DNA from: Deltaproteobacteria bacterium
GTDB taxonomy: Bacteria > Myxococcota > Kuafuiibacteriia > Kuafuiibacteriales > Kuafuiibacteriaceae
DNA length: 64,000 nt
Direction: 5' to 3'
Assembly (NCBI GenBank): GCA_040218735.1
Contig: JAVJQW010000067.1
Coordinates: 96,001 to 160,000 of the forward strand
Shown here: piece after piece, positions 2,597 to 18,737 of the stretch
How positions within the stretch are numbered: position 1 is the stretch's first letter
Layout: every line of letters starts with the position of its first letter
Position numbers and translations under genes: made by a program
The notes under the pieces: model-generated
Told to the model about the DNA's origin: nothing
The model's database searches: none
Seen by the model: only the letters and a program-made list of their open reading frames with translations

Positions 2597-3160
2597 CTAG
2601 CGGATCATGTTCTGCTCGGCGATGACCTGCGAGCAGCGTTTGCCGCCGAGGATCGAGCGCTGGAGCGTCTCGAACTTCGGGAAGCGCGCGTACGACATCA
2701 GCTTGTCGTAACAAGGCGTCCCCTCGATCTTCGCGCTGGCGCCCATCACCTCGGCGAAGTGGATGCGCTTCATGACGGCGTCGTCGCGCGCGCGGAGGAT
2801 CAGCTCGATGCCGCCGGCTTTCGACGCCTGCACGCGCGCGATCGGCGCGGTGTGGGTGTCGCCCTTGTCGCACTGCACGATGACCTCGTCGATCTTCACC
2901 TGCACCTTGGTCGGCGGGCGCGCGCACCACGCCTCGGGGACCATGGTGTCGTCGTCGAGGCGGGTGATCTCACCGTCCGGGTACCAACGACCGATGAGGT
3001 TGTTGATCAGACCCTTCTCGTCGGTGTTCGGGGGGAGCTTCGTGTAGTCCGGCACCGAAGCATCGAGCACCACGGTCTCGACCTTCGTCTCCCCCGGGCA
3101 GCCCACGAGGGCCGCCGACAAGACGAGCGACGCGAGCGCCGCAGGCCTGGTCACCTTCAT
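2597..3160 (-). CDS. Hypothetical lipoprotein (187 aa, several Cys)
   Basis: MKVTRPAALASLVLSAALVG-C lipobox; codon pattern typical of the window. Confidence 0.75.
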   Translation of the reverse strand: MKVTRPAALASLVLSAALVGCPGETKVETVVLDASVPDYTKLPPNTDEKGLINNLIGRWYPDGEITRLDDDTMVPEAWCARPPTKVQVKIDEVIVQCDKGDTHTAPIARVQASKAGGIELILRARDDAVMKRIHFAEVMGASAKIEGTPCYDKLMSYARFPKFETLQRSILGGKRCSQVIAEQNMIR

Positions 3161-3233: not shown

Positions 3234-6200
3234 CTAGTCCGTCGTAGAACCCGAGGTGCCCTCGACTTCGGATTGCACCGTCGGATCGTCGACCGCCGAA
3301 GGCCGCGCAGGCGTGGTCTCGAACAGGCGCCCCCGGAACAAGGGATCCAACTCGTGGAACGCATCCGGGTCGAGCCCGAGCCGTTCGAGGGCCCGCCGCA
3401 GCAGCCCGCGGTACTGATTCGCCATGGAGGTGCTCGCGTCGATCCACGACTGCGGCCAGCCGCGATGACGACCGATCATCGCCGTCCACTCGTGCGCGCG
3501 CACCTCCTCCGCGTAGTTCTCCGCGGGTCCGAGGAGCTGACGTGCGTAACCGCGGACGTGGTCGCGGTAGAGGTGGTAGAGCTCGTGGAAGGCTTCGAGC
3601 TCGGACGGCCGCGGCGTCCCCTCCGGCGTCAGCACCGTCCCCGGGCGCCCGACCTCGGGCGCGCGATCGTAGGCGGCCGTCGCCCCGGGCGGGAGCTCCC
3701 CGGGGCGAGCCTGCCGCACGCCGCCACCGAGTGCTTCGATCGTGGCCTGCATCCGCGCCCACAACGCTGCGTCCATCGGCTCGAGCTCGCGCGCCCGCGA
3801 GTGGTGCCTCGGGTCGAGCTGCCACCCGTCGTAGTCCGCGCTGCCCGGCATTCTCGACTGTTCGGCGAGCAGCCCCAGGACGTACCTCGGCGCCGACAGT
3901 CGCATCTCCTCGAGGTGCAGACGCCATCCCTCGTAGTTGATCGCCGGGACGTCCGCCCCGCCAGGGAGGTTCGGCGTCTCGGAGGCTCGCCCTTGGATCA
4001 CCCACGCCCTGGCCTGCGGGTGGATGTACATCGTCCGCCGCAGCCCGCGGAAATAGTCACGATCGCCGTGGCTGAAGTCCTGTTCCGTGGACCCCGGGTT
4101 GTCGATGCCGTCCACGCCGCTCGGCGGGTGGATGTGGGCGTCGATCACGAGGCGCCCTTCGATTCCGCTGGCGAGCAGACGCTGGTACGCGATCACGCGC
4201 GCGTTCGCCTGGTCGGGATCGACGCGGAACCGTGCGCTCCGGTGCTCGATGTCCGCCCGCGTGACGTCCCGCGGGATGCTGACGTCCGGGTCCGTGAAGA
4301 TGGCCACCAACGATCCCGTTCCGCGCGCGTGCGCCGGGACGAGGCGAGCGTCGAGGCCATGCGCCTGGTACACCGAGATCGCGGCGGCGGCGTCGACGGG
4401 GTTCTTGAACTGCACGATCTGCCCCGAGACCTCCCCGAGGAACGTGGCGTCACTCGAAGCGTCCGGTACGCCGTCGACCCGTCGCCCCCCCGCGGCCCGC
4501 CCGCGAAGCTCGGCGATCATGTAGTCCCGGAACGCGTCCGGCACGAAGTTCAGATCCAGCGGCGGCAACATCAGGGGCTCGGTCGGACGCATCGCCGGGT
4601 CGGGTCGCAACCGCGGTTCGACGGCGAGGCCCCAGTCACGGAGCATCTGGTCGAGGCTCCGCAGATCGACGCGCGTCGTCGCCGATCCCACGTCGCTCCC
4701 GCACCCCGGCGCATCGTCGGCGCCGCGCGGGGTCCGAATCATTCGGCGCCGTGAGCCGACGCTCGGAGCTCGACCCGCCCGCGAGATGAACCTCGTGGCG
4801 CGTCGGATCCCTGCGTCGATCGGGAGGAGCTCCGCGACGAGCTCGAGCAGACGATCGATGGCCGCGGAGCGTGTGTCGGCGTCGCCGGACAGCAGGTCCG
4901 GCAGCAGATCGAGCGCGTAGCTCCCGGCCGGCAAGATGAACGCGAGTCGCTCCGCGGTCGTGAGCGCCCGGAAGGTGACCTCGCCGATGCGCTCTGCGCG
5001 ACCCACCGCACGCCCTGCCGCGAGCACGCGCTTCAGCCGCTGCGCCGTGATCCCCCCCGCACGCGCCGCCGCGAGGACCTTGAGCTGCGCGACGGCGCCG
5101 GCACCGAACCCCTCGACGTACGACTCTCCGGCGATCACCGCGACGGCGGACGTATCGTAGAGTAACCCTGTCACGACATCTCCGCGGCTGTACGCCTCGC
5201 CGCCGTCGCTGAAGAAGGTTGCCGGGAGGTTGGCGAGGCCCATGACGGTCGCCGCCATGTTCGCGACCTCCAGCTCGGTGTAGCTCGTCTTCACCGGCGT
5301 CCGCGACTGCAGCAACCCATCGAGCTCCGGGTCGCCGCTGGCGGACTTCGCGATGCGGTCGACCATCTCGTGGTAGCGCGCGGTGACGGCGGCGACGAAG
5401 AAGTCGTACTGCTCCGCGGTGAGGCGCTCACGCACCGAACGCAGCGCGTCGAGCCTCTCTTCGTCGGTCGAGAGGCCGTGGCCGAGCCAGTCCCAGATCT
5501 GCCCCTGCCGCGTGGTGTAGACGCTGTGAGCGCGCGCGAAGCCGCGTTCGTTCTCGCCGATCCAGCCCTTGTACATCGAGACGGCGTAGACCACGTCGAG
5601 CGGGACGCCGTAGCCGACCAGGTCTTGTAAGAACCCTTCGATCGAGTAGAGCGCGGTCTGCAGCGGCGAGAAGACGTAGGAGGCGCCCGTCCCGATGTAC
5701 CCCATCGTCTCCATCCAGCGTGTCTTGAACTCCTCCCAGTACGACGGCGTGGACGGGACCGATTCGATCGGCACGCCGTCGACGCGCCAACCGACGAGGC
5801 CCCAGTCCTCGCCGTGCCCCGTGGTGACGAACTGGTCGCCGTGACTGATCGCCGTCGTGACCTGCTCGAAGCCCGCGTCGAAGTGCCACCGCGAGATGCT
5901 GTCCTGACCCATCGCGAAGACCTTCACCCCGCCCTCGTTCGACGGCTGGAACACGTAGTTCTTGGTGCTGACGCTCGTGTTGGCGTCGCCCCGCGTCTCG
6001 ACGTCGATGTGCAGACGGCCGTCGCGGATGCGCATCGAACGCACGCGGTACTCGACCCCGTCGACCTTCACCCACGCGCCACCGCCCTTCAGCGCGTTGG
6101 CGAATGGACGGTTGAGCTTCGCCATCTCGGCGACGGTCCGCTCGAAGACACGGGCGACGTCGGGGTCGAGGTATTCGGGGTCGACGTCGAGCTCGAGATC

Positions 6201-9200
6201 CGTCGCGAGGACCTTCGGGTCGAACACGAGCTCCCCGCGCTCGCCGTCGGGCCACACGTAGCGTGCCTCCGACTTGCCGGCGACGAGGTCGACACGCGTC
6301 GTCCCCTCGAAGAAGCCGGTCATGACGAACTCGCGCTCCCCGTTCAGCTCGACGACCTTCCCGATGCCGATGCGATCGAAGTCGCCGGGGATGACCGCGA
6401 TCTGCTCGTCCTCCGCGAGGAGCCTCGTCGCGTCGCCGATGCGCACCCGCTTTTCTCCGTCCTCGCTGCGCTCCACCTGCACCCGTCGCTGGCCGTCGAG
6501 ATCGACCCAGCTATCCACGCGCGGCACGCCGTCGGCGCCCTTGTCGACGATGACGATGCGATCGTCGCGCACGTGCGCGACCTGACTGGCTTCGAGGACG
6601 CGTTCGAACGTGCCCGCGCGGACCTCGAAGCGCCCCTCCTCGTCGATGTGCACCGTCGTCGTCAGGTCGCCAGCGACCTCGCGTGCGTACGCCCCGTTGG
6701 CGTAGGTCGTCTCGGTGACCCCTTGGCCGTTCTTCTCGCGGATCGTCCCGTCGGACTCGACGACGTTCTCGCGACCGTCGCGCTCGAACCGAACCACCCA
6801 GTGGTAGGGGCTGTTCTGAACGATCTGAACGTTCTTCACGCCTTGCGCACGGAGCAGCTCCACGAAGTCCTCGGGCCGGCTCGGCAGGCCCACCGCGAGA
6901 CCGGGCACCACCGCCACGGCCCGGTTCACGAGCGTGTCCATCCTCGACTCGAGCCACTCGACGGTCTTCGTCAGCTCGATACGCTCCTTGGCGGGCAGCG
7001 TCGGATCCCGCAGCGCCTCCTCCGCCGCCTCGCGCTCACCACGGAGCCGCTCCACCTCGGGCCGCAATCGCGCAGGGTCGAAGTCCTCGCCGCGGGGGAG
7101 CGCCTGGGCCCCGTCGTCGTCGCGCAGCAGCGCTCGGGCGGCGTCCACCTCGGCACCGAGGCGAACGAGGGCCTCGAAGGCCGCCTTGTCCTTCGGGTCC
7201 ACGTCGAGCCTCGCCTTCGCGTCTTCGACCTGGTCCACGAGCTGGTCGACGTGGACCGCGGCGTCGGATGCTTCCGCGATCTGCTTGCCGTCCAATACGG
7301 CGAGCCGACGCTCCACGGCCTCCAAGCGCTTCAACTTTGCGCGGTACACCACCTCGTCACCGAGGGGGTTGTCGATCAGACCGAGGTGTCGCGGATTGCG
7401 GGGGTCACCGAACAGCTCGAGCTCCAGCGCGAATCGCTCACGTCGGAGCGCGAGGCGCTCACGCGCCAGGTCCAGGTCGGCACCGGCGTACCACCCCGGC
7501 GGGAACCCGAAGCCGTTGGCCTTCACGTCGTCGTACCGCAGATCGTCGAGCGCGGTGCGGGTCTCCTCCTCCCCGAGTCTGCGCACGGGGACACCCGGTC
7601 CACCGGCGACGGGGAACGCCACGGGCCGCGGCGACGGAACGTCGAGGTTCACGGCAGCGGGCGCGGCGGCGCCTGGGGGCTTGCCCAACGCGAAGTTGAA
7701 CTGCGTGACACGCTCCGTGACGAGCTCGCCGAGGCGAATCGCAAACGCGTTGAAGCGCAGCTTCTCGAACTCCTGGACCGTACCGACGAGCGATCGGTTC
7801 TCGCGCCCGAGCGCATCGAGCTCGGCGCCGAGCTCGGTGAGCGCCATCTCGAGGTCGACGATCTCCGCGCGTAGTTGTCGTGCTTCGTCCGCCGCGCCGG
7901 GCTGGTTGGCGATCTGCCGGAGCCGCCGCTGACGATCCTCGATGCCGCGCGAGTAACCGCGTGCCTCGCGGCTCCCGCGCTCCATGCGATCCCCGTTGCG
8001 TCGGAGGGTGTCGCGCGCCTTCTCCGCCGTCGCCTTTCCGTCCTTCAGCGGCTTGGCGAGGTCGATGATCATGTCGTTCTTCGTCGCGATCGCGCTCGCG
8101 TTGGGCTGGCCGAGCTTGGCCTCCGCGTCCTCCAGGCTCGACAAGGCGATGTCCAAAGCCTCTCCGCGCTCCGCGAGGTCCTGGTCGCTCATCTGGGTCC
8201 AGTAGTCGAAGCCCTTGCCACCGACGGCCTCCGTCGCGGCGCCCAGCGCACCCGACGCCGCCTGCACGACGTTGCCGAGCCGATTCACCTCCGCCTCCAG
8301 CTGACGAATCTCGGCCTGCTGCGCCGGCGTCGGGTTCGGTTGTCCGCGGAGCCCGTCCAGGCGGGCCTTGGCGTCCTCGAAGGCCTGCGCCGACGAAGCC
8401 ATCCGCTTCTGCGCCTCGTGGTGCCGCCGCTCCGCGGGGGTCATCGCCTCGAGCTTCTGCTGCTCGTGTGCGCGACGGCGGTTGGTGAGCGCCGCTTCTT
8501 TCGCGCGGATCGGCGCGGTCTTGGATTCCCAGCGCCCTTTGTCGCCGAGGTCCTGACTGTGTTGCCGGTTGAGGTCGGTCAGGTCCTGCCGAATCTCACG
8601 CTGCGCGTCGACGTCCCCGGAGTCCATCGCATCCTGAAGCTCGTTGCGCAGACGCTGTGACTCCTTCTCGTAGTCCCTCTCGAGGTTCTTGAACTTCTTC
8701 TCGTCCTCCTCGTAGGTGTTGCCTTCGCGATCGTACGCGTCCTTCGCGTCGTCGATGTCGCGCTGCTCCTCGTCGATCGCCTTCGACTCCGCCTGCGCCG
8801 CCCGACGCTTCGGGTCGTTCCTTCGCCGCTTCTGCTCGTCCTCGACGTCCTGCTTCTCTCGTTCGACCTCGTCCTTCGCGTCTTGGACCTCCTCCTCGAG
8901 CGCCTCGAGCTCCTCTTCGTTGCCCTTCACCACGAGCGCTTCGAGCGGGACTTCGGGTGCCTTCGGACGCAGCGGCGCCGCCGCGGGCGCCGGACCTCCG
9001 GGCCCCACGGGCGGCACCACCGGCGGCATGATTGGCGGCATGATCGGCGGGAGCTGCCCGGACACGAGGCCCGGCGTGGCGGCGGCGTAGACGTCCCCGG
9101 TCAGGCGCTGCGTGACGTTCGTCGTCGGCGTGTTCGTCGGCGGCGTGAACGTCGGCGTCTCCGGTTCGGCTTCGAGGGAAGGGGTGACGAGGGAGGAAGA

Positions 9201-9224
9201 GAAGAGCCCGTTGAATTCGACCAT
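3234..9224 (-). CDS. Giant (~1996 aa) coiled-coil effector/polymorphic toxin-like protein with C-terminal JAB and HExxH metallopeptidase domains
   Basis: Start placed at MVEFNG by the sigma54 promoter 13 nt upstream. Long E/K/R/Q/A heptad-rich region, beta-rich middle, hydrophobic Gly-rich segments, then AHIHPP...FSHGD and HELYH...EEVRAH. Confidence 0.8.
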   Translation of the reverse strand: MVEFNGLFSSSLVTPSLEAEPETPTFTPPTNTPTTNVTQRLTGDVYAAATPGLVSGQLPPIMPPIMPPVVPPVGPGGPAPAAAPLRPKAPEVPLEALVVKGNEEELEALEEEVQDAKDEVEREKQDVEDEQKRRRNDPKRRAAQAESKAIDEEQRDIDDAKDAYDREGNTYEEDEKKFKNLERDYEKESQRLRNELQDAMDSGDVDAQREIRQDLTDLNRQHSQDLGDKGRWESKTAPIRAKEAALTNRRRAHEQQKLEAMTPAERRHHEAQKRMASSAQAFEDAKARLDGLRGQPNPTPAQQAEIRQLEAEVNRLGNVVQAASGALGAATEAVGGKGFDYWTQMSDQDLAERGEALDIALSSLEDAEAKLGQPNASAIATKNDMIIDLAKPLKDGKATAEKARDTLRRNGDRMERGSREARGYSRGIEDRQRRLRQIANQPGAADEARQLRAEIVDLEMALTELGAELDALGRENRSLVGTVQEFEKLRFNAFAIRLGELVTERVTQFNFALGKPPGAAAPAAVNLDVPSPRPVAFPVAGGPGVPVRRLGEEETRTALDDLRYDDVKANGFGFPPGWYAGADLDLARERLALRRERFALELELFGDPRNPRHLGLIDNPLGDEVVYRAKLKRLEAVERRLAVLDGKQIAEASDAAVHVDQLVDQVEDAKARLDVDPKDKAAFEALVRLGAEVDAARALLRDDDGAQALPRGEDFDPARLRPEVERLRGEREAAEEALRDPTLPAKERIELTKTVEWLESRMDTLVNRAVAVVPGLAVGLPSRPEDFVELLRAQGVKNVQIVQNSPYHWVVRFERDGRENVVESDGTIREKNGQGVTETTYANGAYAREVAGDLTTTVHIDEEGRFEVRAGTFERVLEASQVAHVRDDRIVIVDKGADGVPRVDSWVDLDGQRRVQVERSEDGEKRVRIGDATRLLAEDEQIAVIPGDFDRIGIGKVVELNGEREFVMTGFFEGTTRVDLVAGKSEARYVWPDGERGELVFDPKVLATDLELDVDPEYLDPDVARVFERTVAEMAKLNRPFANALKGGGAWVKVDGVEYRVRSMRIRDGRLHIDVETRGDANTSVSTKNYVFQPSNEGGVKVFAMGQDSISRWHFDAGFEQVTTAISHGDQFVTTGHGEDWGLVGWRVDGVPIESVPSTPSYWEEFKTRWMETMGYIGTGASYVFSPLQTALYSIEGFLQDLVGYGVPLDVVYAVSMYKGWIGENERGFARAHSVYTTRQGQIWDWLGHGLSTDEERLDALRSVRERLTAEQYDFFVAAVTARYHEMVDRIAKSASGDPELDGLLQSRTPVKTSYTELEVANMAATVMGLANLPATFFSDGGEAYSRGDVVTGLLYDTSAVAVIAGESYVEGFGAGAVAQLKVLAAARAGGITAQRLKRVLAAGRAVGRAERIGEVTFRALTTAERLAFILPAGSYALDLLPDLLSGDADTRSAAIDRLLELVAELLPIDAGIRRATRFISRAGRAPSVGSRRRMIRTPRGADDAPGCGSDVGSATTRVDLRSLDQMLRDWGLAVEPRLRPDPAMRPTEPLMLPPLDLNFVPDAFRDYMIAELRGRAAGGRRVDGVPDASSDATFLGEVSGQIVQFKNPVDAAAAISVYQAHGLDARLVPAHARGTGSLVAIFTDPDVSIPRDVTRADIEHRSARFRVDPDQANARVIAYQRLLASGIEGRLVIDAHIHPPSGVDGIDNPGSTEQDFSHGDRDYFRGLRRTMYIHPQARAWVIQGRASETPNLPGGADVPAINYEGWRLHLEEMRLSAPRYVLGLLAEQSRMPGSADYDGWQLDPRHHSRARELEPMDAALWARMQATIEALGGGVRQARPGELPPGATAAYDRAPEVGRPGTVLTPEGTPRPSELEAFHELYHLYRDHVRGYARQLLGPAENYAEEVRAHEWTAMIGRHRGWPQSWIDASTSMANQYRGLLRRALERLGLDPDAFHELDPLFRGRLFETTPARPSAVDDPTVQSEVEGTSGSTTD

Positions 9225-9237
9225 GCCCGGGTGCATC

Positions 9238-9252
9238 GCAAGCCGAGTGCCA
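9238..9252 (-). promoter_or_regulatory. sigma54 (-24/-12) promoter of the giant gene
   Basis: Minus strand reads TGGCACTCGGCTTGC, matching TGGCAC-N5-TTGC. Confidence 0.85.
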
Positions 9253-9280
9253 GGCCCGCGCGACGGTCGGTCGCCACCTC

Positions 9281-9303
9281 GTCGTGCAGGCGCGTGCACA
9301 ACG
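9281..9303. promoter_or_regulatory. Putative enhancer-binding-protein site (copy 1)
   Basis: GTCGTGCA-N7-GCACAACG imperfect inverted repeat, 28 nt upstream of the sigma54 promoter. The same arms occur at 13137-13159. Confidence 0.7.
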
Positions 9304-9330
9304 ACGCCGTCGTGACGTGCACGACCCGAC

Positions 9331-11052
9331 TCAATCGTCGAGGATGCGCGCGACGATGTCGTCGATGCGCGTGGTCGCGCCGCTCGCCGTGGCCTCCGTG
9401 AGCTCGAAACGCAGGCGCGACGCACGCTCGGGCGTCAGGGCGTCGAGGCGCGCCCACGCGGCCGCCGTGCGCTCGGTGCGTTCGGCGCGGTCGGCGTCTT
9501 CGCTGCGTCCGCTGCGTTCCGTGCGTTCGGCGCCTGCGCTGCGTTCCGTGCGTTCCATGCGCTTGGTGCGTTGCCTGCGTTCGGCGTCTGCGCTGCGTTC
9601 CGTGCGTTCGGCGCCCACGCTGAGCACGCTGCGTTCGGTGGGTTCCGTGCGCTCGCTGCGTCCGGTGCGTTCGGTGCGGAGCGCAGCGGGAGGCTGGTTC
9701 GGCTCCAGCGCCGCGCGCTTCACGACCGGCGTCCTCTCCTTCGCGGCCGCCGCCGCCTCGCGTCGCGCCGCGCCGCGCGCTCCCTTGGGGGCCTCTCGCG
9801 GCCGCACCTGTGGCGTCGACTTCACCGCCGTCGCAGGGCTCGATCGCGGCGACCACCACGAGACGACGTCCCGCGCCGCGAACCCGGCGAACGCCGCGCA
9901 CGCAAGAGCGAGCGCCAACACGAGCCACGATGCTCCGCGACGTGCTCGCGTCGCCGGCGGCGGCGCCCAGTCACTCATCCGACGCGGCGTGCGGTCGTCG
10001 CGGGCCGTGGTCTCGGCGGTCACGAGCGCGCCCACCGAAGTCGTCGGCGCGAGGGTGTTCGTCGCGGGCATCGGCCGACGCGGCGCCTCCTCAGCGGCGG
10101 GTTCGAAGCGTTCGACCAGCGCGGCCAGATCGCGCTCCGCGGTGGTGTGTCCGTCGAGCGAAGGCAACAGACCCGTAAGCGCCTCCACCAGCTCGCGGTG
10201 CGTCGGTCGTTCGTCGGGGACGCGGTTCAAGCCCCGCGCAATCACGTCGGCGAGCGATCGTGGAAAGTCGGGACGAAGCGCATCGACCCTCGGCGCATCC
10301 CGCGTCACCAACCGCGCGACCATCGCCGCGAGGTCTCGGCCCTGAAACAGCCGCGTCCCCGTCGCACACTCGAAGAGGACGATGCTCGCGCTGAACACGT
10401 CGGACTTCTGATCGAGCGGCGCGCCGGTCGCCTGCTCCGGAGAGAAGTAGCCGGGCTTGCCGCGGAGCACCCCCGAAGCGGTCACGTGCGACTGAATCGC
10501 CGTCCGCGCGATTCCGAAGTCCGTGAGGCGCACGACCCCCGTCCGATCGACGAGGATGTTGTGCGGAGAGACATCGCGATGCACCAGCTGGAGCGGCCGG
10601 CCATCGTCGGACGGGAACGCGTGGGCGTAGTCGAGCCCGGCCGCCAACCGCAGCCCGATGTGCGCCACGACGGCCGGCGACATCGCCTCCTCGGCGTCGA
10701 CGAGCTGCCCGAGGAGCCGGTTGAGCGGGAGGCCGTCGACCAGCTCCATCGCGATGTAGATCCACTCACCCTCGCGGCCGAGGTCGATCGTCCGCACGAT
10801 CGACGGGTGCGAAAGCGCCGACGTCGCGCGCGCCTCGTCGATGAACATCACCGCGGTCTGCGACGTCATGCGGGGCGCACGCACCAGCTTCAGCGCGACC
10901 ACCTTCTCGAACCCGGCCCGCCCGGAGTACACCGCCGACCACACTTCGCCCATGCCCCCACGTCCGAGGCGCGAGAGAAGTGTGTACGCGCCGATCCGAT
11001 CCCGGGGAGCGGGACGTACCGCAAGCGGCTCCAAGGGGAGGCCTGCGCGCAT
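9331..11052 (-). CDS. Membrane-bound Hanks-type Ser/Thr protein kinase
   Basis: LGRGGMGEV, VALK, HRDVSPHN, DFG and GKPGYFSPE motifs; TM helix WLVLALALACAAFAGFAA. Exact start uncertain (11052, 11034 or 11085). Confidence 0.92.
   Translation of the reverse strand: MRAGLPLEPLAVRPAPRDRIGAYTLLSRLGRGGMGEVWSAVYSGRAGFEKVVALKLVRAPRMTSQTAVMFIDEARATSALSHPSIVRTIDLGREGEWIYIAMELVDGLPLNRLLGQLVDAEEAMSPAVVAHIGLRLAAGLDYAHAFPSDDGRPLQLVHRDVSPHNILVDRTGVVRLTDFGIARTAIQSHVTASGVLRGKPGYFSPEQATGAPLDQKSDVFSASIVLFECATGTRLFQGRDLAAMVARLVTRDAPRVDALRPDFPRSLADVIARGLNRVPDERPTHRELVEALTGLLPSLDGHTTAERDLAALVERFEPAAEEAPRRPMPATNTLAPTTSVGALVTAETTARDDRTPRRMSDWAPPPATRARRGASWLVLALALACAAFAGFAARDVVSWWSPRSSPATAVKSTPQVRPREAPKGARGAARREAAAAAKERTPVVKRAALEPNQPPAALRTERTGRSERTEPTERSVLSVGAERTERSADAERRQRTKRMERTERSAGAERTERSGRSEDADRAERTERTAAAWARLDALTPERASRLRFELTEATASGATTRIDDIVARILDD
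9466..9680 (-). repeat. Degenerate coding tandem repeats (ERT/ERS units) in the kinase's extracytoplasmic tail
   Basis: Repeated cgttccgtgcgttcgg-like units encoding AERTERS. Confidence 0.75.
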
Positions 11053-12382
11053 GTCCAACGGATTCGGAGAAGTCGAGACCATCAAGCGCGGTACGTCCGC
11101 GTCGGCGCTTCAGATCGCCGATTCACCCGGGAGGAGGTTGATCGTCTTCGGGCGCGGCCCCACCCGCACGATCGAGGTCCCCGAGGAGGGCCAGTGGCTC
11201 GTCGGGCGCGCGCCCGACGCTGCGTTGCGCCTCGACGACGGTGAGGTCTCGCGCGCACACGCACGTGTCACCTTCGGCCGTTCCGTCTTCATCGAGGATC
11301 TCGAGAGCGCCAACGGGACGCTGGTGCGCCTGGAGGCGGCCCGCGCCGGACGGCGCACGGAGGTCCGCACGGGCGACGCGGTGCAGATCGGCCCCTTCAC
11401 CCTCGTCCTCCTCGGGCAGCAACCCCTCGAGCGCGACGCACACGACTTCGTCATAGCGTCGTCGGCGATGCAGCAGCTCTACGACCTGATCGATCGCATC
11501 GCGGTGGGGAGCATCAGCGTCCTCATCTTCGGTGAGACCGGCGTCGGCAAGGAGGTCACCGCCGAGGCCGTGCACCTGCGCTCGCGTCGTCGCGACGGCC
11601 CGTTCGTTCGGCTCAACTGTGCCGCGCTCACCGAATCCATCATCGAGAGCGAGCTGTTCGGCTACGAGAAGGGGGCCTTCACCGGCGCCGTGGCGTCGAA
11701 GCGAGGGCTCATCGAAGCCGCCGACGGCGGAACGCTGTTCCTCGACGAGATCGGCGAGTTGCCGCTGTCGTCGCAAGTGAAGCTGCTGAGGGTCCTCGAA
11801 GAGCGGCGCGTGCGGCGGGTCGGCGCGCTCGAATCACACCCGGTCGACGTCCGCATCGTCGCCGCGACCAACCGCGATCTCGAGCGTGAGATCGCCGCGG
11901 GCAGCTTCCGGGAGGACCTCTACTTTCGGCTCAACGGCATGCCGCTGGAGGTCCCGCCGCTGCGTCTTCGCAAAAGCGAGATCGCGGCGCTGGCGGAGCG
12001 GTTCGTGACGCTCGTGTGCACACGCGACCCTCACCTCGTCCCGCCTCCGATCTCGACGCAGGCGTTGGCGCACCTCGAGCGCTACGACTGGCCCGGGAAC
12101 ATTCGCGAGCTCCGGAACGTCATCGAACGCGCCGTGCTGTTGGCGCAGGGCGGCACGATCGAGGTCGAGCACGTCCCGCTCGACGGCGTCGTGACGTCGA
12201 CGAAGACGGCCGCCGCCTTGCCCTCTCAGGTCCAGGCCTTCGAGCGGGATCGTATCGTCGCCGCGTTGGCCGCGTGCGACGGGAACCAGACCCAGGCCGC
12301 CGAGCGGCTGGGTATCGCGAGGCGGACGCTCATCAACCGCCTCGACCAGTACGACATCGAGCGTCCGCGGAAGGGGCGCTGA
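11051..12382 (+). CDS. FHA-domain sigma54-dependent transcriptional activator (AAA+ plus Fis HTH)
   Basis: GGGGAGG SD; FHA motifs VGR..VSRAH..SANGT; Walker A GETGVGKE; GAFTGA; Walker B FLDEIG; WPGNIREL; [15 protein letters not shown]. Confidence 0.95.
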
Positions 12383-12383
12383 T

Positions 12384-12617
12384 TCACGCCGCCCGATCGA
12401 CATCTCGGTGCTCGAGCATCAGCCGCACCAGCGTCTCGCCGAGCTGCCGACTCACCGGGTCGGGCGACCCCTTCTTCACCGACAGCGGGCCCCCACTCGC
12501 ATTGAGCGCCGCGCGCCGCGCACGAATCTGCTCCGCGAGCGCGAGCTCCCCGAGCCCGGCGCTCTCCAGACGCTCCCAGATCAGACGCCGTCGCGCCGCC
12601 GCCTCCTCCGCCTTCAT
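12384..12617 (-). CDS. Small hypothetical protein (77 aa) coupled to the upstream gene
   Basis: MKAEEAAARRRL...; ATG overlaps the upstream stop (TGATG). Confidence 0.55.
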   Translation of the reverse strand: MKAEEAAARRRLIWERLESAGLGELALAEQIRARRAALNASGGPLSVKKGSPDPVSRQLGETLVRLMLEHRDVDRAA

Positions 12618-13081
12618 CAGCGCTGCCCAACTTCCGACGCCGCCTGCTTGGCGTTGCGATCGTAGGCCTGCACGCAGTTCGAGAGCGCGTCGAAGAGCAT
12701 CTGGCGCTCGTCCGTGAGGCGGTTGAGCTCGACGACCTGCACGTCGACCGAGCGCGACGGGTCGGTGTCCATCCCCGCGTTGATGGTGTCGACCTTCTCT
12801 CGGATGCGCTCGTCGGAGCTTCGCATCGCGCGGATGAGCAGCAACATGATGAGCTCGGCGATGGAGCGCCCGACCCCCGCGAGCGGATCCAAGCCCGCGT
12901 CGCGGACGAGGCGCATCGTCCCGTCGACGACGCCTGCGCCGTTGGGGCCGGCCACGGTCGGGAGCACCGGCGGCGGCGCCTGGCTCGCATCGTAGCCGTC
13001 GACGGGCGCCGCCGTCGGCACCTCCTCGGACGGCGGCGCCGTCGTAGAGATCGGGGTGGTGGTCGCGTTCGTGACGTTCAT
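12617..13081 (-). CDS. Small helical protein with Thr/Pro-rich N-terminus; C-terminus resembles type III needle/filament subunits
   Basis: 154 aa; ATG 13 nt below a sigma54 promoter. C-terminal helix SVDVQVVELNRLTDERQMLFDALSNCVQAYDRNAKQAASEVGQR. CDS solid, function inferred. Confidence 0.75.
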   Translation of the reverse strand: MNVTNATTTPISTTAPPSEEVPTAAPVDGYDASQAPPPVLPTVAGPNGAGVVDGTMRLVRDAGLDPLAGVGRSIAELIMLLLIRAMRSSDERIREKVDTINAGMDTDPSRSVDVQVVELNRLTDERQMLFDALSNCVQAYDRNAKQAASEVGQR

Positions 13082-13094
13082 GCCCGGACGTAGA

Positions 13095-13109
13095 GCAGCG
13101 ACCGTGCCA
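13095..13109 (-). promoter_or_regulatory. sigma54 (-24/-12) promoter
   Basis: Minus strand reads TGGCACGGTCGCTGC(T). Confidence 0.8.
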
Positions 13110-13136
13110 ACCGCGCCGCAGCCGCGTTCGCGCGCG

Positions 13137-13159
13137 GTCGTGCACGTCCTGGCACAACG
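13137..13159. promoter_or_regulatory. Putative enhancer-binding-protein site (copy 2)
   Basis: GTCGTGCA-N7-GCACAACG, 27 nt upstream of the sigma54 promoter; extra GTCGTGCAC half-site at 13159-13167. Confidence 0.7.
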
Positions 13160-13168
13160 TCGTGCACG

Positions 13169-14590
13169 CTACTGCTCGACGACGACGAGCGTCCCGCGGG
13201 CGCCCGCGACGACGAGGTCCTCACCTCCGTCGAGCGCGAGGTACGCGTCGGAGGGCGACGCGCCTTCGTCGCCGAGCGCGACGTTCACGCAGTCGATCGC
13301 GGTCGCGAACAACAGGACCCCTGCACAACCCAACGTCACCGCGATCCGCGGCCCGAACCGAGCCACGTCGTTGGCCGCGGACAGACGGCCCGCAGCGTCG
13401 AGGCACGGGGCGATCGATCGCGGGAGCGTCGGCGCATGTTCGACGAAGCCCGCCCCCTCCGCGCGGAGCACTCCGGGCGGGAGCGTCGTCATCCACGTCT
13501 CGTCGTCGGCGCTCACGGCGAGCCCGGTGGGGTCGACCGTCTCGGCGGACGTCAGGGTGCGGGTCGTGAACGTGTCGGTCGTGAGGTCGCCCTCGAAGAC
13601 GACGTTGGTCGCCGCGACGACATCACGCGTGGTCGCGCGCAGGACCCGCTCGACGCGACGACCGGGCGCAACCGGAAGGTCCGCGAGCCGCTCCACCCGC
13701 CCGTCGACGCGGAGCACGAGCCGCACGCCCTCCTCTCCCGCCGCGATGGCCTCCCCGGCGGCGTCGAACGCGACGGCGCGCAGGCCGCGGTCGGCTACGA
13801 CCGTCGCGGTGCCCGCCCACGTGAGCGTGCGGCCGACGATCGAGAACGTGTACAGGCGCCCTTCGACACACGCGGGATCTTGGTCGCAGCCGCGCGCGGT
13901 CGCGGCGACGACGCCCGAGAAGCCGTCTTCGTTTCGGACGACGTCGAGGTCGAGCGCCTCGACGTTCGTCGCGCCGTCCAGCGGGAGGAGCTCGTCGTGG
14001 GTCGGTGCGCCGGGGAGGTCGTCGCGCGTGAAGAGGTAGATGTTACCGCGCGACATCGCGACCGCACGGTCGTCGTCGAGCCTGCGCACTCGGGTGAGGT
14101 CCGCGGCGTAGGCCGGCGCGGAGGGCAAGAGTGAAGCGGCGGTCGCAAACGGGACGAGGCGCGCCGCCGCGCACTGCGGGGGCGCCGGCTCGGACCACGT
14201 CAGCGCTTTAGCGACCTCGCGATCCGTCGCGACGAACCGATCTTTCTCCAGCAAGAGGATCTCCACGTCGGCGGGTACGGGGCCCTCGATCCGTGACGCA
14301 CCGTCGAACGTCGGCGCGTCGGGCGGCGCCCCCAACGCGAGGCCCGCGCCCTCACCGAGCGGCGCGCGGAGCAAGATGAGTTGCGCCTCGTCGAGGTCGA
14401 CGGACAGGCGTGTCCGTGGCTCCGTCCGCCCGTCGACGATCGTGAACGGCCCGACGATCTCGACCGGGGCGGCCCCTTCGACGACGACCGCGAACGCCAC
14501 CGGCGCGTCGAGCCCCTCCAGCGTCACGTCGAGCTGGCGGGAGCCACAGCCGAGCAAGAGCGCGGCCGCCGCGACGCACCAGGACCGCAT
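13169..14590 (-). CDS. Lipoprotein, probable beta-propeller C-terminal region
   Basis: MRSWCVAAAALLLG-C lipobox; repeated beta-strand blades such as LRAVAFD, IAAGEEG and VVAGARGTLV. Confidence 0.7.
   Translation of the reverse strand: MRSWCVAAAALLLGCGSRQLDVTLEGLDAPVAFAVVVEGAAPVEIVGPFTIVDGRTEPRTRLSVDLDEAQLILLRAPLGEGAGLALGAPPDAPTFDGASRIEGPVPADVEILLLEKDRFVATDREVAKALTWSEPAPPQCAAARLVPFATAASLLPSAPAYAADLTRVRRLDDDRAVAMSRGNIYLFTRDDLPGAPTHDELLPLDGATNVEALDLDVVRNEDGFSGVVAATARGCDQDPACVEGRLYTFSIVGRTLTWAGTATVVADRGLRAVAFDAAGEAIAAGEEGVRLVLRVDGRVERLADLPVAPGRRVERVLRATTRDVVAATNVVFEGDLTTDTFTTRTLTSAETVDPTGLAVSADDETWMTTLPPGVLRAEGAGFVEHAPTLPRSIAPCLDAAGRLSAANDVARFGPRIAVTLGCAGVLLFATAIDCVNVALGDEGASPSDAYLALDGGEDLVVAGARGTLVVVEQ

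Positions 14591-16082: not shown

Positions 16083-18737
<2,655 letters not shown>

Follow-up and report, generated by a model that had tools for sequence, protein, structure and literature searches.

Which genes answer to a serine/threonine kinase whose gene is paired with that of a sigma-54 activator, and what do the products of these genes do? The locus that raises this question lies in a 64-kb stretch of DNA from the phylum Myxococcota, called the window in the following, which is contig C20:96001-160000 of a genome of 11,606,468 bases (68.8% GC, 70 contigs); positions without a contig name are window positions. Here the genes of the kinase P0004 and of the enhancer-binding protein (EBP) P0005 are flanked by those of a giant orphan protein, P0003, and of a small protein, P0001, each preceded by a sigma-54 promoter and by the same palindromic box. 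We read this arrangement, with a probability of about 0.6, as the centre of a small lineage-restricted sigma-54 regulon run by the pair of Ser/Thr kinase and FHA-domain activator. The features are the following, where ORF stands for open reading frame:

3234..9224, minus strand: P0003, 1996-aa orphan protein without family match, target 1
9238..9252, minus strand: sigma-54 promoter of target 1 (P0003), TGGCACTCGGCTTGC, then 13 nt to the ATG at 9224; predicted 5' untranslated region of about 2 nt
9281..9303, no strand: enhancer box 1, 22-bp imperfect palindrome GTCGTGCA-N6-TGCACAAC plus G, centred about 65 nt upstream of the predicted start
9309..9325, no strand: extra half-sites GTCGTGAC / GTGCACGAC, read directly, distal to box 1
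9331..11052, minus strand: P0004, 573-aa Hanks-type Ser/Thr kinase (Pkinase PF00069, E 1.6e-37, domain at residues 23-290)
9467..9678, no strand: 9-bp tandem repeat, 23.6 copies, encoding the repeat tail of P0004
11051..12382, plus strand: P0005, 443-aa EBP (FHA 49-114, AAA+ 135-299, lid, HTH_8 396-434)
12384..12617, minus strand: P0002, 77-aa orphan; its ATG and the TGA of P0001 have one base in common
12617..13081, minus strand: P0001, 154 aa, a divergent member of the hairpin family, target 2
13095..13109, minus strand: sigma-54 promoter of target 2 (P0001), TGGCACGGTCGCTGC, then 13 nt to the ATG at 13081
13137..13159, no strand: enhancer box 2, proximal, centred at about -65
13159..13181, no strand: enhancer box 3, distal, two mismatches, 22 bp from box 2, centred at about -87 and overlapping the stop codon of an upstream 551-aa ORF

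The two sigma-54 promoters had been proposed in an initial annotation of the DNA, and they are the only strict matches in the 64 kb. The pattern TGGCAC-N5-YTGC occurs exactly twice, both times on the minus strand, compared with 0.16 occurrences expected, and at least two matches were obtained in 0 of 100 shuffled versions of the window. At both sites the GG and GC doublets lie 10 nt apart, as is required of a sigma-54 promoter. Moreover, both 13-nt spacers end in CCGGGC directly in front of the ATG. This had been noted for the pair; the sequence is present at both promoters, but the spacing is the norm of the genome and no signature shared by these two. Genome-wide, the strict search gives 65 sites, and an ATG follows 42 of them at a distance of 11-18 nt compared with 7 of the 198 sites of a decoy, the reversed motif. 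Most of these 42 ATGs (37) open ORFs of at least 100 aa, many of them with signal or lipoprotein peptides. The first ATG stands 13 nt behind 14 of the 65 sites, 14 nt behind 12 and 15-17 nt behind nine. In 20 genomes of the same family, the promoter followed by N13-14 and ATG was matched 196 times, compared with 20 matches for N23-24 and 11 for a backwards control; in 21 genomes from other families of the phylum there were 45 matches for N13-14 versus 27 for N23-24. As the ATG spacing is genome-wide, CCGGGC-ATG was dropped as a regulon-specific mark, and the start codons are supported by it. Sigma-54 transcripts start about 12 nt after the GC of the -12 element. Judged from the sequence, the spacing therefore implies that leaderless sigma-54 mRNAs with a predicted leader of 2-3 nt are the norm in this genome and a lineage trait of the bacterial family. 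A report joining leaderless mRNA with sigma-54 in myxobacteria was not found in the literature searched; in the available portions of this literature leaderless mRNA in myxobacteria is mentioned only for a sigma-A-type promoter, and the word 'leaderless' is absent from the accessible part of a comparative paper on sigma-54 regulons (PMC12316311). Start-codon-abutting sigma-54 promoters throughout a family could matter more widely, both to studies of translation initiation and to promoter annotation.

Upstream of each promoter stands the box GTCGTGCA-N7-GCACAACG, exact at 9281-9303 and at 13137-13159 and separated from the promoters by 28 and 27 nt, respectively; the identity of all 16 arm bases (16/16) claimed at first inspection was confirmed. 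The whole genome holds two exact copies, both in the window, whereas about 0.008 would be expected from an estimate based on composition. The additional half-sites that had been noted could likewise be read, next to box 1 and, on the other side, as the two-mismatch box 3. Written as the palindrome consensus GTCGTGCA-N6-TGCACGAC, the site has no exact copy in the genome and five copies with at most one mismatch, two of them in the window. Tandem boxes with one mismatch each are found on contig C9 (561345-561366 and 561368-561389), between two divergent genes. On one side the promoter TGGCACCGCGAGTGC lies 28 nt from the box, and the gene of a 420-aa lipoprotein begins with its ATG 14 nt further on; on the other side the weaker CGGCGC-N5-GTGC lies at a distance of 27 nt, again with 14 nt to a start codon, here that of a 145-aa lipoprotein. 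The same loci emerge when the geometry is searched instead of the palindrome. The half-site TGCAC[GA]AC, placed 26-29 nt ahead of a loose sigma-54 core, has five matches in the genome, four of which are the two window and the two C9 promoters with an ATG 13-14 nt further on, while four other gap windows in the same search gave 1, 1, 2 and 2 matches. Furthermore, when 652 loose sigma-54 candidates were ranked by the half-sites within 200 nt upstream, C9:561418 came out on top with six half-sites, and three candidates have four, namely both window promoters and C64:69362. The proximal boxes are centred at about -65 at all sites and the distal ones at about -87/-88, i.e., two helical turns apart, which is unusually close to the promoter for an enhancer. 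We consider it very probable that the four promoters constitute one regulon. The scan for box plus promoter that had been suggested as a check thus finds the exact pair to be unique to the window, but the regulon extends to C9, where two more box-bearing promoters with the same geometry are located; the description of the locus as self-contained does not hold.

Three candidate sites from these searches were set aside. C64:69362, in spite of its four half-sites, and C42:95838, which has the right gap, both lack an ATG at the right distance, and the one-mismatch palindrome at C17:417717-417738, which lies within an FHA-like ORF, has no promoter at the right distance and is probably due to chance.

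The regulator of these promoters is most plausibly encoded between the two window targets. All domains of the FHA-AAA+-HTH activator that had been recognised there are complete in P0005: Sigma54_activat (PF00158, E 7.9e-69), which has the Walker A/B motifs and in which EKGAFTGA is read and GAFTGA is intact, FHA (PF00498, E 8.6e-12) and, at the C-terminus, the Fis-type helix-turn-helix HTH_8 (E 1.9e-14). FHA domains that read phospho-threonine keep a Gly-Arg, a Ser-x-x-His and an Asn-Gly among their loop residues; in P0005 the corresponding residues are VGR, SRAH and ANG. The genome encodes about 91 sigma-54 activator (EBP) loci and 258 kinase loci, and among the paralogues of P0005 the closest one reaches 58.5% identity across AAA+ and HTH. 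Its HTH found no match among the activator loci, the best ones reaching 51-64% with other recognition-helix residues. Since the only two exact boxes bracket P0005 and its HTH is not shared, the boxes were assigned to P0005, and on this sequence evidence it is probably the protein that binds them.

The claim of a transmembrane Ser/Thr kinase was also substantiated. The Pkinase domain of P0004 is intact, all motifs can be read (the Gly-rich loop GRGGMGEVW, VALK, HRD, DFG and SPE), and a single hydrophobic segment is located near residues 384-403. The C-terminal part of about 170 aa behind this segment consists of (S/T)ER repeats of low complexity. In related strains this repeat shows a 9-bp deletion and a skip of 9489-9671, which suggests that the tail is unstable in length. 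A kinase gene within 1.5 kb is found for 11 of the 28 FHA-activators, P0005 included, versus 11 of the 63 other activators. That P0004 controls P0005 through the FHA domain appears somewhat better than an even chance. The genes of P0004 and P0005 are divergent on opposite strands, with ATGs overlapping by 2 nt (11050-11053); a good Shine-Dalgarno sequence for P0005 (AGGGGAGG), located 9 nt ahead of its ATG, falls within the P0004 coding region, and none is evident for P0004.

Mechanistically, the membrane-anchored P0004 would phosphorylate a threonine of its own or of a partner. In P0005 the FHA domain, which stands where NtrC-type activators have a receiver domain, would read the phospho-threonine and thereby gate the assembly of the AAA+ ring. 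Dimers of P0005 would bind via the Fis-type HTH to the 22-bp palindromes, which are single or in tandem 22-23 bp apart, and from about -65 and -87 would remodel the sigma-54 holoenzyme at the four promoters. The transcripts would start 2-3 nt before the ATG and be leaderless, and the outputs would be P0003, perhaps together with a lipoprotein gene downstream of it, the P0001-P0002 pair and the two divergent lipoprotein genes on C9.

Concerning the first of these outputs, P0003 starts with 100 Thr/Pro-rich residues, continues with a highly charged region (101-500) that is probably a coiled coil, and contains a conserved central domain at about residues 850-1475. The protein has no match in Pfam and NCBIfam; four 500-aa pieces and the last 221 aa gave nothing credible in Pfam at E ≤ 10, and the comparison with PDB sequences yielded nothing meaningful. 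An exhaustive HMMER search for remote homologues with residues 800-1996 as query (E ≤ 0.001, 1.84 billion representatives) returned 13 representatives, namely an orthologue of 98% identity and 12 remote homologues, which match mainly at 850-1475. These 12 are giant proteins with varying C-terminal modules in Pfam:

P0131: AvrB_AvrC module
P0132: GGDEF, kinase-like domain and EndoU
P0135 and P0139: GGDEF
P0141: GGDEF and a weak Kdo kinase-like match
P0142: M48 and ABC1
the other six: no recognisable module

P0003 thus shows what is expected of a modular effector, a conserved central region combined with variable C-terminal modules across the homologues, and judged by its sequence it looks effector-like, with the layout of modular or polymorphic effectors. 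The earlier designation as a giant effector agrees with the module layout of the family, but a recognised trafficking domain (Rhs, PAAR, MAFB, LXG etc.) was not found in Pfam. In its C-terminal part P0003 carries the motifs HIHPPSG...STEQD (1697) and HELYH (1880), the former of which is invariant in the 31%-identical P0133. A JAB/MPN metalloprotease at 1480-1750 was considered and rejected, with the HIHPPSG...STEQD motif only and no Pfam match at E ≤ 10. The AlphaFold2 (AF2) model of residues 1480-1996 was unusable with a predicted local distance difference test (pLDDT) value of 42.8, and a search with a protein language model using the C-terminal part gave scores of 0.77-0.78, which are within chance. 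Behind the giant gene follows a further reading frame:

2597..3160, minus strand: 187-aa lipoprotein ORF, MKVTRPAALASLVLSAALVGC..., 74 nt downstream of the P0003 gene

From its position this gene may be part of the P0003 transcript. The lipoprotein has no paralogue in the genome, and the longer ORF is without a match in Pfam or NCBIfam. For the 420-aa lipoprotein of the C9 locus (C9:561286-561450) acidic double-disulfide repeats were found (NF033662, E 2.4e-15).

In the second window target, the base shared by the TGA of P0001 and the ATG of P0002 suggests translational coupling. Neither protein has a match in Pfam and NCBIfam. The AF2 model of P0001 (19-row alignment, mean pLDDT 64) consists of a disordered region, the Thr/Pro-rich residues 1-70, and of two helices at 74-103 and 108-152. 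The prediction of a complex of P0001 (55-154) with P0002 scored 0.01, the fold of P0002 itself being uncertain. The last 50-110 residues of P0001 are homologous to the C-termini of proteins of about 400 aa that are rich in Gly, Met and Gln. In this hairpin family, for which Pfam holds no model, the last 45 residues hardly vary from genus to genus (SIDVETMKLKRLIDKRSQMFDMLRQIIDKYNETAKNIIQSIGR). A profile of the family finds six copies in this genome and matches in 26 of 121 sampled genomes of the phylum: in 13 of 19 genomes of family f1 (3-8 copies each), in 10 of 12 of f9 (single copy), in one of five of f17 and in the one of f27 (1/1).

One copy of the hairpin family stands in a type III export operon. 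At C23:318340-325308 the order is SctU (Bac_export_2, E 1.5e-108), a 151-aa ORF, a 173-aa TPR protein, the hairpin protein (407 aa, Gly/Met-rich), a 280-aa ORF and SctV (FHIPEP, E 4e-239). A hairpin gene is located 1.0-1.4 kb upstream of SctV and on the same strand in this operon and in 12 relatives (G002, G004, G006, G007, G008, G009, G010, G011, G012, G015, G016 and G018), i.e., in 13 of 20 genomes of the family. The 'small filament-like protein' of the initial annotation is therefore related to a family encoded in type III secretion system (T3SS) operons, but it does not match the needle family. Language-model look-alikes of P0001 reached scores of 0.81-0.86 and are leads only.

Further observations concern the same genes elsewhere in the genome. 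There are six full-length FHIPEP genes and one partial one (C23:323241, C59:395676, C41:146084, C70:143580, C38:16372, C9:330842 and C16:73260), several of which lie near strict sigma-54 sites or FHA-activators, e.g., C38:19471 and C9:326102. At C18:142630-145855 a gene of the hairpin family comes with a strict sigma-54 site of its own (TGGCACGGCGCCTGC) and is followed by the genes of a 613-aa ABC-type exporter and of a PAS hybrid histidine kinase. At C42:130983 a promoter of the strict leaderless sigma-54 type drives the gene of an 80-aa protein whose N-terminus resembles that of P0001 (MSITNVDNTPTPQ...), and another FHA-activator gene (C42:133574-134788) lies about 2.6 kb away; this locus is possibly a parallel module that uses another upstream site. 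At their N-termini, P0003 (MVEFNGLF), P0001 (MNVTNATT) and the hairpin family (MVGFNTAG, MGFNVRRF, MVAINVTG) are alike in style, i.e., uncharged and rich in Asn, Thr and Gly, a likeness to which we give little weight as evidence.

How far does this lineage restriction reach? P0003 has three orthologues in 5.8 billion clusters, with 98, 89 and 86% identity, and close orthologues of P0001 were found on two contigs of metagenome-assembled genomes (MAGs; 79-80%) and on one fragment. The orthologues P0007 and P0010 of the two targets share a 225,295-nt contig with locus tags four steps apart, and P0006 and P0011 share a 69,843-nt contig, which fits an inferred conservation of the gene order giant-kinase-activator-P0002-P0001 on both MAG contigs. 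Moreover, in a comparison with four DNA runs, two contigs of a related strain (35,655 and 6,441 nt) are about 98% identical and collinear over 8800-13400 except for the kinase repeat. Outside its own 90% cluster the best match of P0005 has 64% identity, and P0001 or its alignment found no related locus in genome and metagenome contigs. As regards conservation in relatives, which had been named as a check, the target pair is co-located on two MAG contigs, and orthologues of P0005, P0001, P0003 and the C9 lipoprotein are missing from the 20-40 relatives searched. The latter suggests that the whole regulon is confined to a narrow clade.

Several observations weigh against the regulon and its proposed type III link. 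The related strains are near-identical and therefore without power in such a comparison, and among 40 of the 143 differences listed there is one intergenic change (9254 G>C). An orthologue of P0001 is absent in 19 other genomes of the family, P0003 has no match in 40 relatives (in a stricter first look within the search), the C9 lipoprotein has none in 20 relatives, and P0005 reaches at best 49-51% over its full length in 40 relatives, with no orthologue. Furthermore, P0005 has about 90 paralogues, to one of which the box could belong, and the C9 locus shows that linkage of the box to the P0005 gene is not a rule. Regarding the export machinery, the single hairpin gene is not near either SctV in five f9 genomes, the P0001 gene itself adjoins no type III gene, and P0001 has no match to the needle family SctF (PF09392) in Pfam and NCBIfam; the hairpin profile compared with the genome's weak PF09392 candidate gave a probability of 2.9% in hhalign, with the C-termini aligned end to end. 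Finally, the tail of P0004 contains no recognisable sensor domain and has no domain match.

Among the alternatives, the one that survives best accepts the regulon as real and places its products inside the producing cell. P0003 would be a large coiled-coil scaffold or an enzyme, e.g., a JAB-like or HExxH hydrolase with a part in envelope remodelling, stress or development, P0001 and P0002 would form a helical pair in the cytoplasm, and there would be neither secretion nor attack. In agreement with this, neither P0003 nor P0001 has a Sec signal or a membrane segment, and 10 window ORFs, that of GyrA among them, run against Pfam revealed no secretion genes around the module. In the P0003 homologues, the GGDEF, ABC1 and kinase-like modules are signalling domains of an ordinary cytoplasmic kind. 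The fold of the helical hairpin is likewise generic: Foldseek with the P0001 model returned generic helical hairpins and designed coils, none at E ≤ 0.001, and the family profile met only coiled-coil noise among PDB sequences, including influenza HA2 at E ~0.02. However, a hairpin copy within the type III export operon of most family genomes, the AvrB_AvrC module of P0131 and the EndoU module of P0132, both typical of delivered effectors or toxins, and the two other regulon members, which as lipoproteins are exported, speak against purely internal roles, so that we regard this alternative as rather unlikely. We tentatively propose instead that P0001 and P0003 are exported and tied to the type III-like machines of the genome. 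Judged by genomic neighbourhood and domain layout, the hairpin proteins and giants of the P0003 type would be candidates for the missing roles of needle-less type III-like systems, an assignment that ranges from doubtful to tentative. In its most complete form, with the regulon supplying such needle-less machines, the hairpins as needle- or translocon-like part and the giants as effectors, their production being gated by Ser/Thr phosphorylation through an FHA-activator and starting from leaderless sigma-54 promoters, the proposal is unlikely.

A second alternative concerns the regulator. The boxes might be operators of a different protein, another EBP or a repressor, with P0005 and the kinase placed between the targets by chance. 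A sigma-54 interaction domain was not found near the C9 boxes in the seven larger ORFs tested within about 9 kb, so an activator encoded elsewhere must serve them; moreover, several of the 91 EBP loci have a related HTH (51-64%). Set against this, exact boxes exist at just two places in 11.6 Mb, one on either side of P0005 and both within 2 kb of it, the order giant-kinase-activator-P0002-P0001 is kept in related strains or MAGs, and no paralogue has the same recognition helix. Another regulator is therefore improbable, and P0005 remains our preferred binder of the boxes.

A third alternative is the contact-triggered attack device of the initial annotation, in which the kinase would sense a surface or prey and co-induce an injected effector and a filament. 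In its favour, P0004 is anchored in the membrane with its tail facing outwards, the targets resemble effectors and have a type III link, and the accessible part of a review describes contact killing by M. xanthus with a needle-less type III-like system and FHA proteins in the Kil cluster (PMC10433427). On the other hand, the tail is a low-complexity repeat without domain match that varies in length between strains, P0001 lies far from any secretion cluster, and metagenomic or mixed-culture DNA is the sole source of knowledge on the organism. The attribute 'surface-sensed' received no support, as the outer part of P0004 is this repeat tail of about 170 aa, and 'contact-triggered attack' is speculation that we consider very improbable. 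A chance similarity or local duplication without function can practically be dismissed: the genome is GC-rich with many GTGCAC-like words (1649 half-sites), but 16 of 16 bases are identical where ~0.008 copies are expected, four promoters on two contigs show the same box-to-promoter distance, and the flanking sequence bears no mark of duplication, as the spacers and the 27-28-nt gaps differ.

The module around P0005 is part of ordinary chromosomal surroundings, as is suggested by an even base composition (GC 0.66-0.74 all along positions 1-22000, in which no sign of a foreign island was seen) and by a DNA gyrase gene nearby:

16083-18737: DNA gyrase subunit A (GyrA; DNA_topoisoIV, E 8.7e-165), 3 kb from the module

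The closest known counterparts of the regulator are found in myxobacteria, which possess FHA-type sigma-54 activators by the dozen and Ser/Thr kinases by the hundred. FHA-domain EBPs of Myxococcus xanthus were reportedly described by Jelsbak, Givskov and Kaiser in 2005. In common with these, P0005 is an NtrC-like activator with an FHA input instead of a receiver, a presumed phospho-threonine signal and a setting in a kinase-rich phylum. It differs in that a kinase gene is directly paired with it through divergent overlapping starts, in that a complete candidate site and a putative four-promoter regulon can be read from the sequence, and in that the targets are orphan proteins and not known developmental genes. 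With FHA-type activators being a recognised myxobacterial class, 11 of 28 here with a kinase within 1.5 kb, the label 'undescribed system' could not be kept: the pair of kinase and FHA-activator is a known myxobacterial design, and what is new is the readable site, the closed list of targets and the nature of these targets. To our knowledge no FHA-type activator has been assigned both its kinase and its DNA site. A pair with a readable site and four promoters is for this reason a test case for phospho-threonine signalling that drives sigma-54 transcription. Further study is most worthwhile for the leaderless sigma-54 architecture seen throughout the bacterial family and for the hairpin proteins linked to type III operons.

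The sites can be compared with those of NtrC and NifA, which are palindromes for dimers of Fis-type HTH proteins, often in tandem and two helical turns apart, upstream of the -24/-12 promoter. The palindromic and tandem layout is the same, with boxes at -65 and -87 instead of -100 to -150; in contrast to NtrC/NifA, the half-sites are everted (GTGCA...TGCAC) and the promoters abut the start codon. Regarding the giant protein, polymorphic toxins combine a conserved delivery region with a swappable C-terminal module. Similarly, the central domain of P0003 recurs in 12 giants with differing C-termini, whereas no recognised trafficking domain was found in P0003 with Pfam and its family is tiny, with 13 representatives in 1.84 billion.

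Precedents for the combination of such regulators with delivery systems are HrpR/HrpS for the T3SS of P. syringae, VasH for the type VI secretion system (T6SS) of Vibrio and the PpkA-PppA-Fha1 threonine-phosphorylation switch for the T6SS of P. aeruginosa. In all of them sigma-54 activators and/or a kinase-FHA pair gate a delivery system together with its substrates, as is proposed here. In contrast, FHA, AAA+ and HTH are combined in one protein in P0005, and the module is located beside candidate substrates and not beside an apparatus. Sigma-54 control of T3SS and T6SS is mentioned in the available part of PMC12316311.

Finally, the needle-less type III-like system of M. xanthus, T3SS*, has LcrH-type chaperones and no needle or translocon homologue, and its effectors are unknown according to the accessible part of the review (PMC10433427). 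The targets of the regulon bear on the question, posed in this part of the review, of what myxobacterial type III-like systems export and through what. P0001 and P0003 differ from such systems in being encoded outside a cluster of this kind, and in five f9 genomes the hairpin gene is not near SctV. What is shared is the combination of an export apparatus with LcrH-type TPR chaperones, as far as described in the available parts of PMC10433427 and PMC12075869, since one SctV operon of this genome encodes a TPR protein followed by a hairpin gene. Two candidate families can thus be offered for the T3SS* question, the hairpin proteins beside TPR chaperones and the giant modular proteins.

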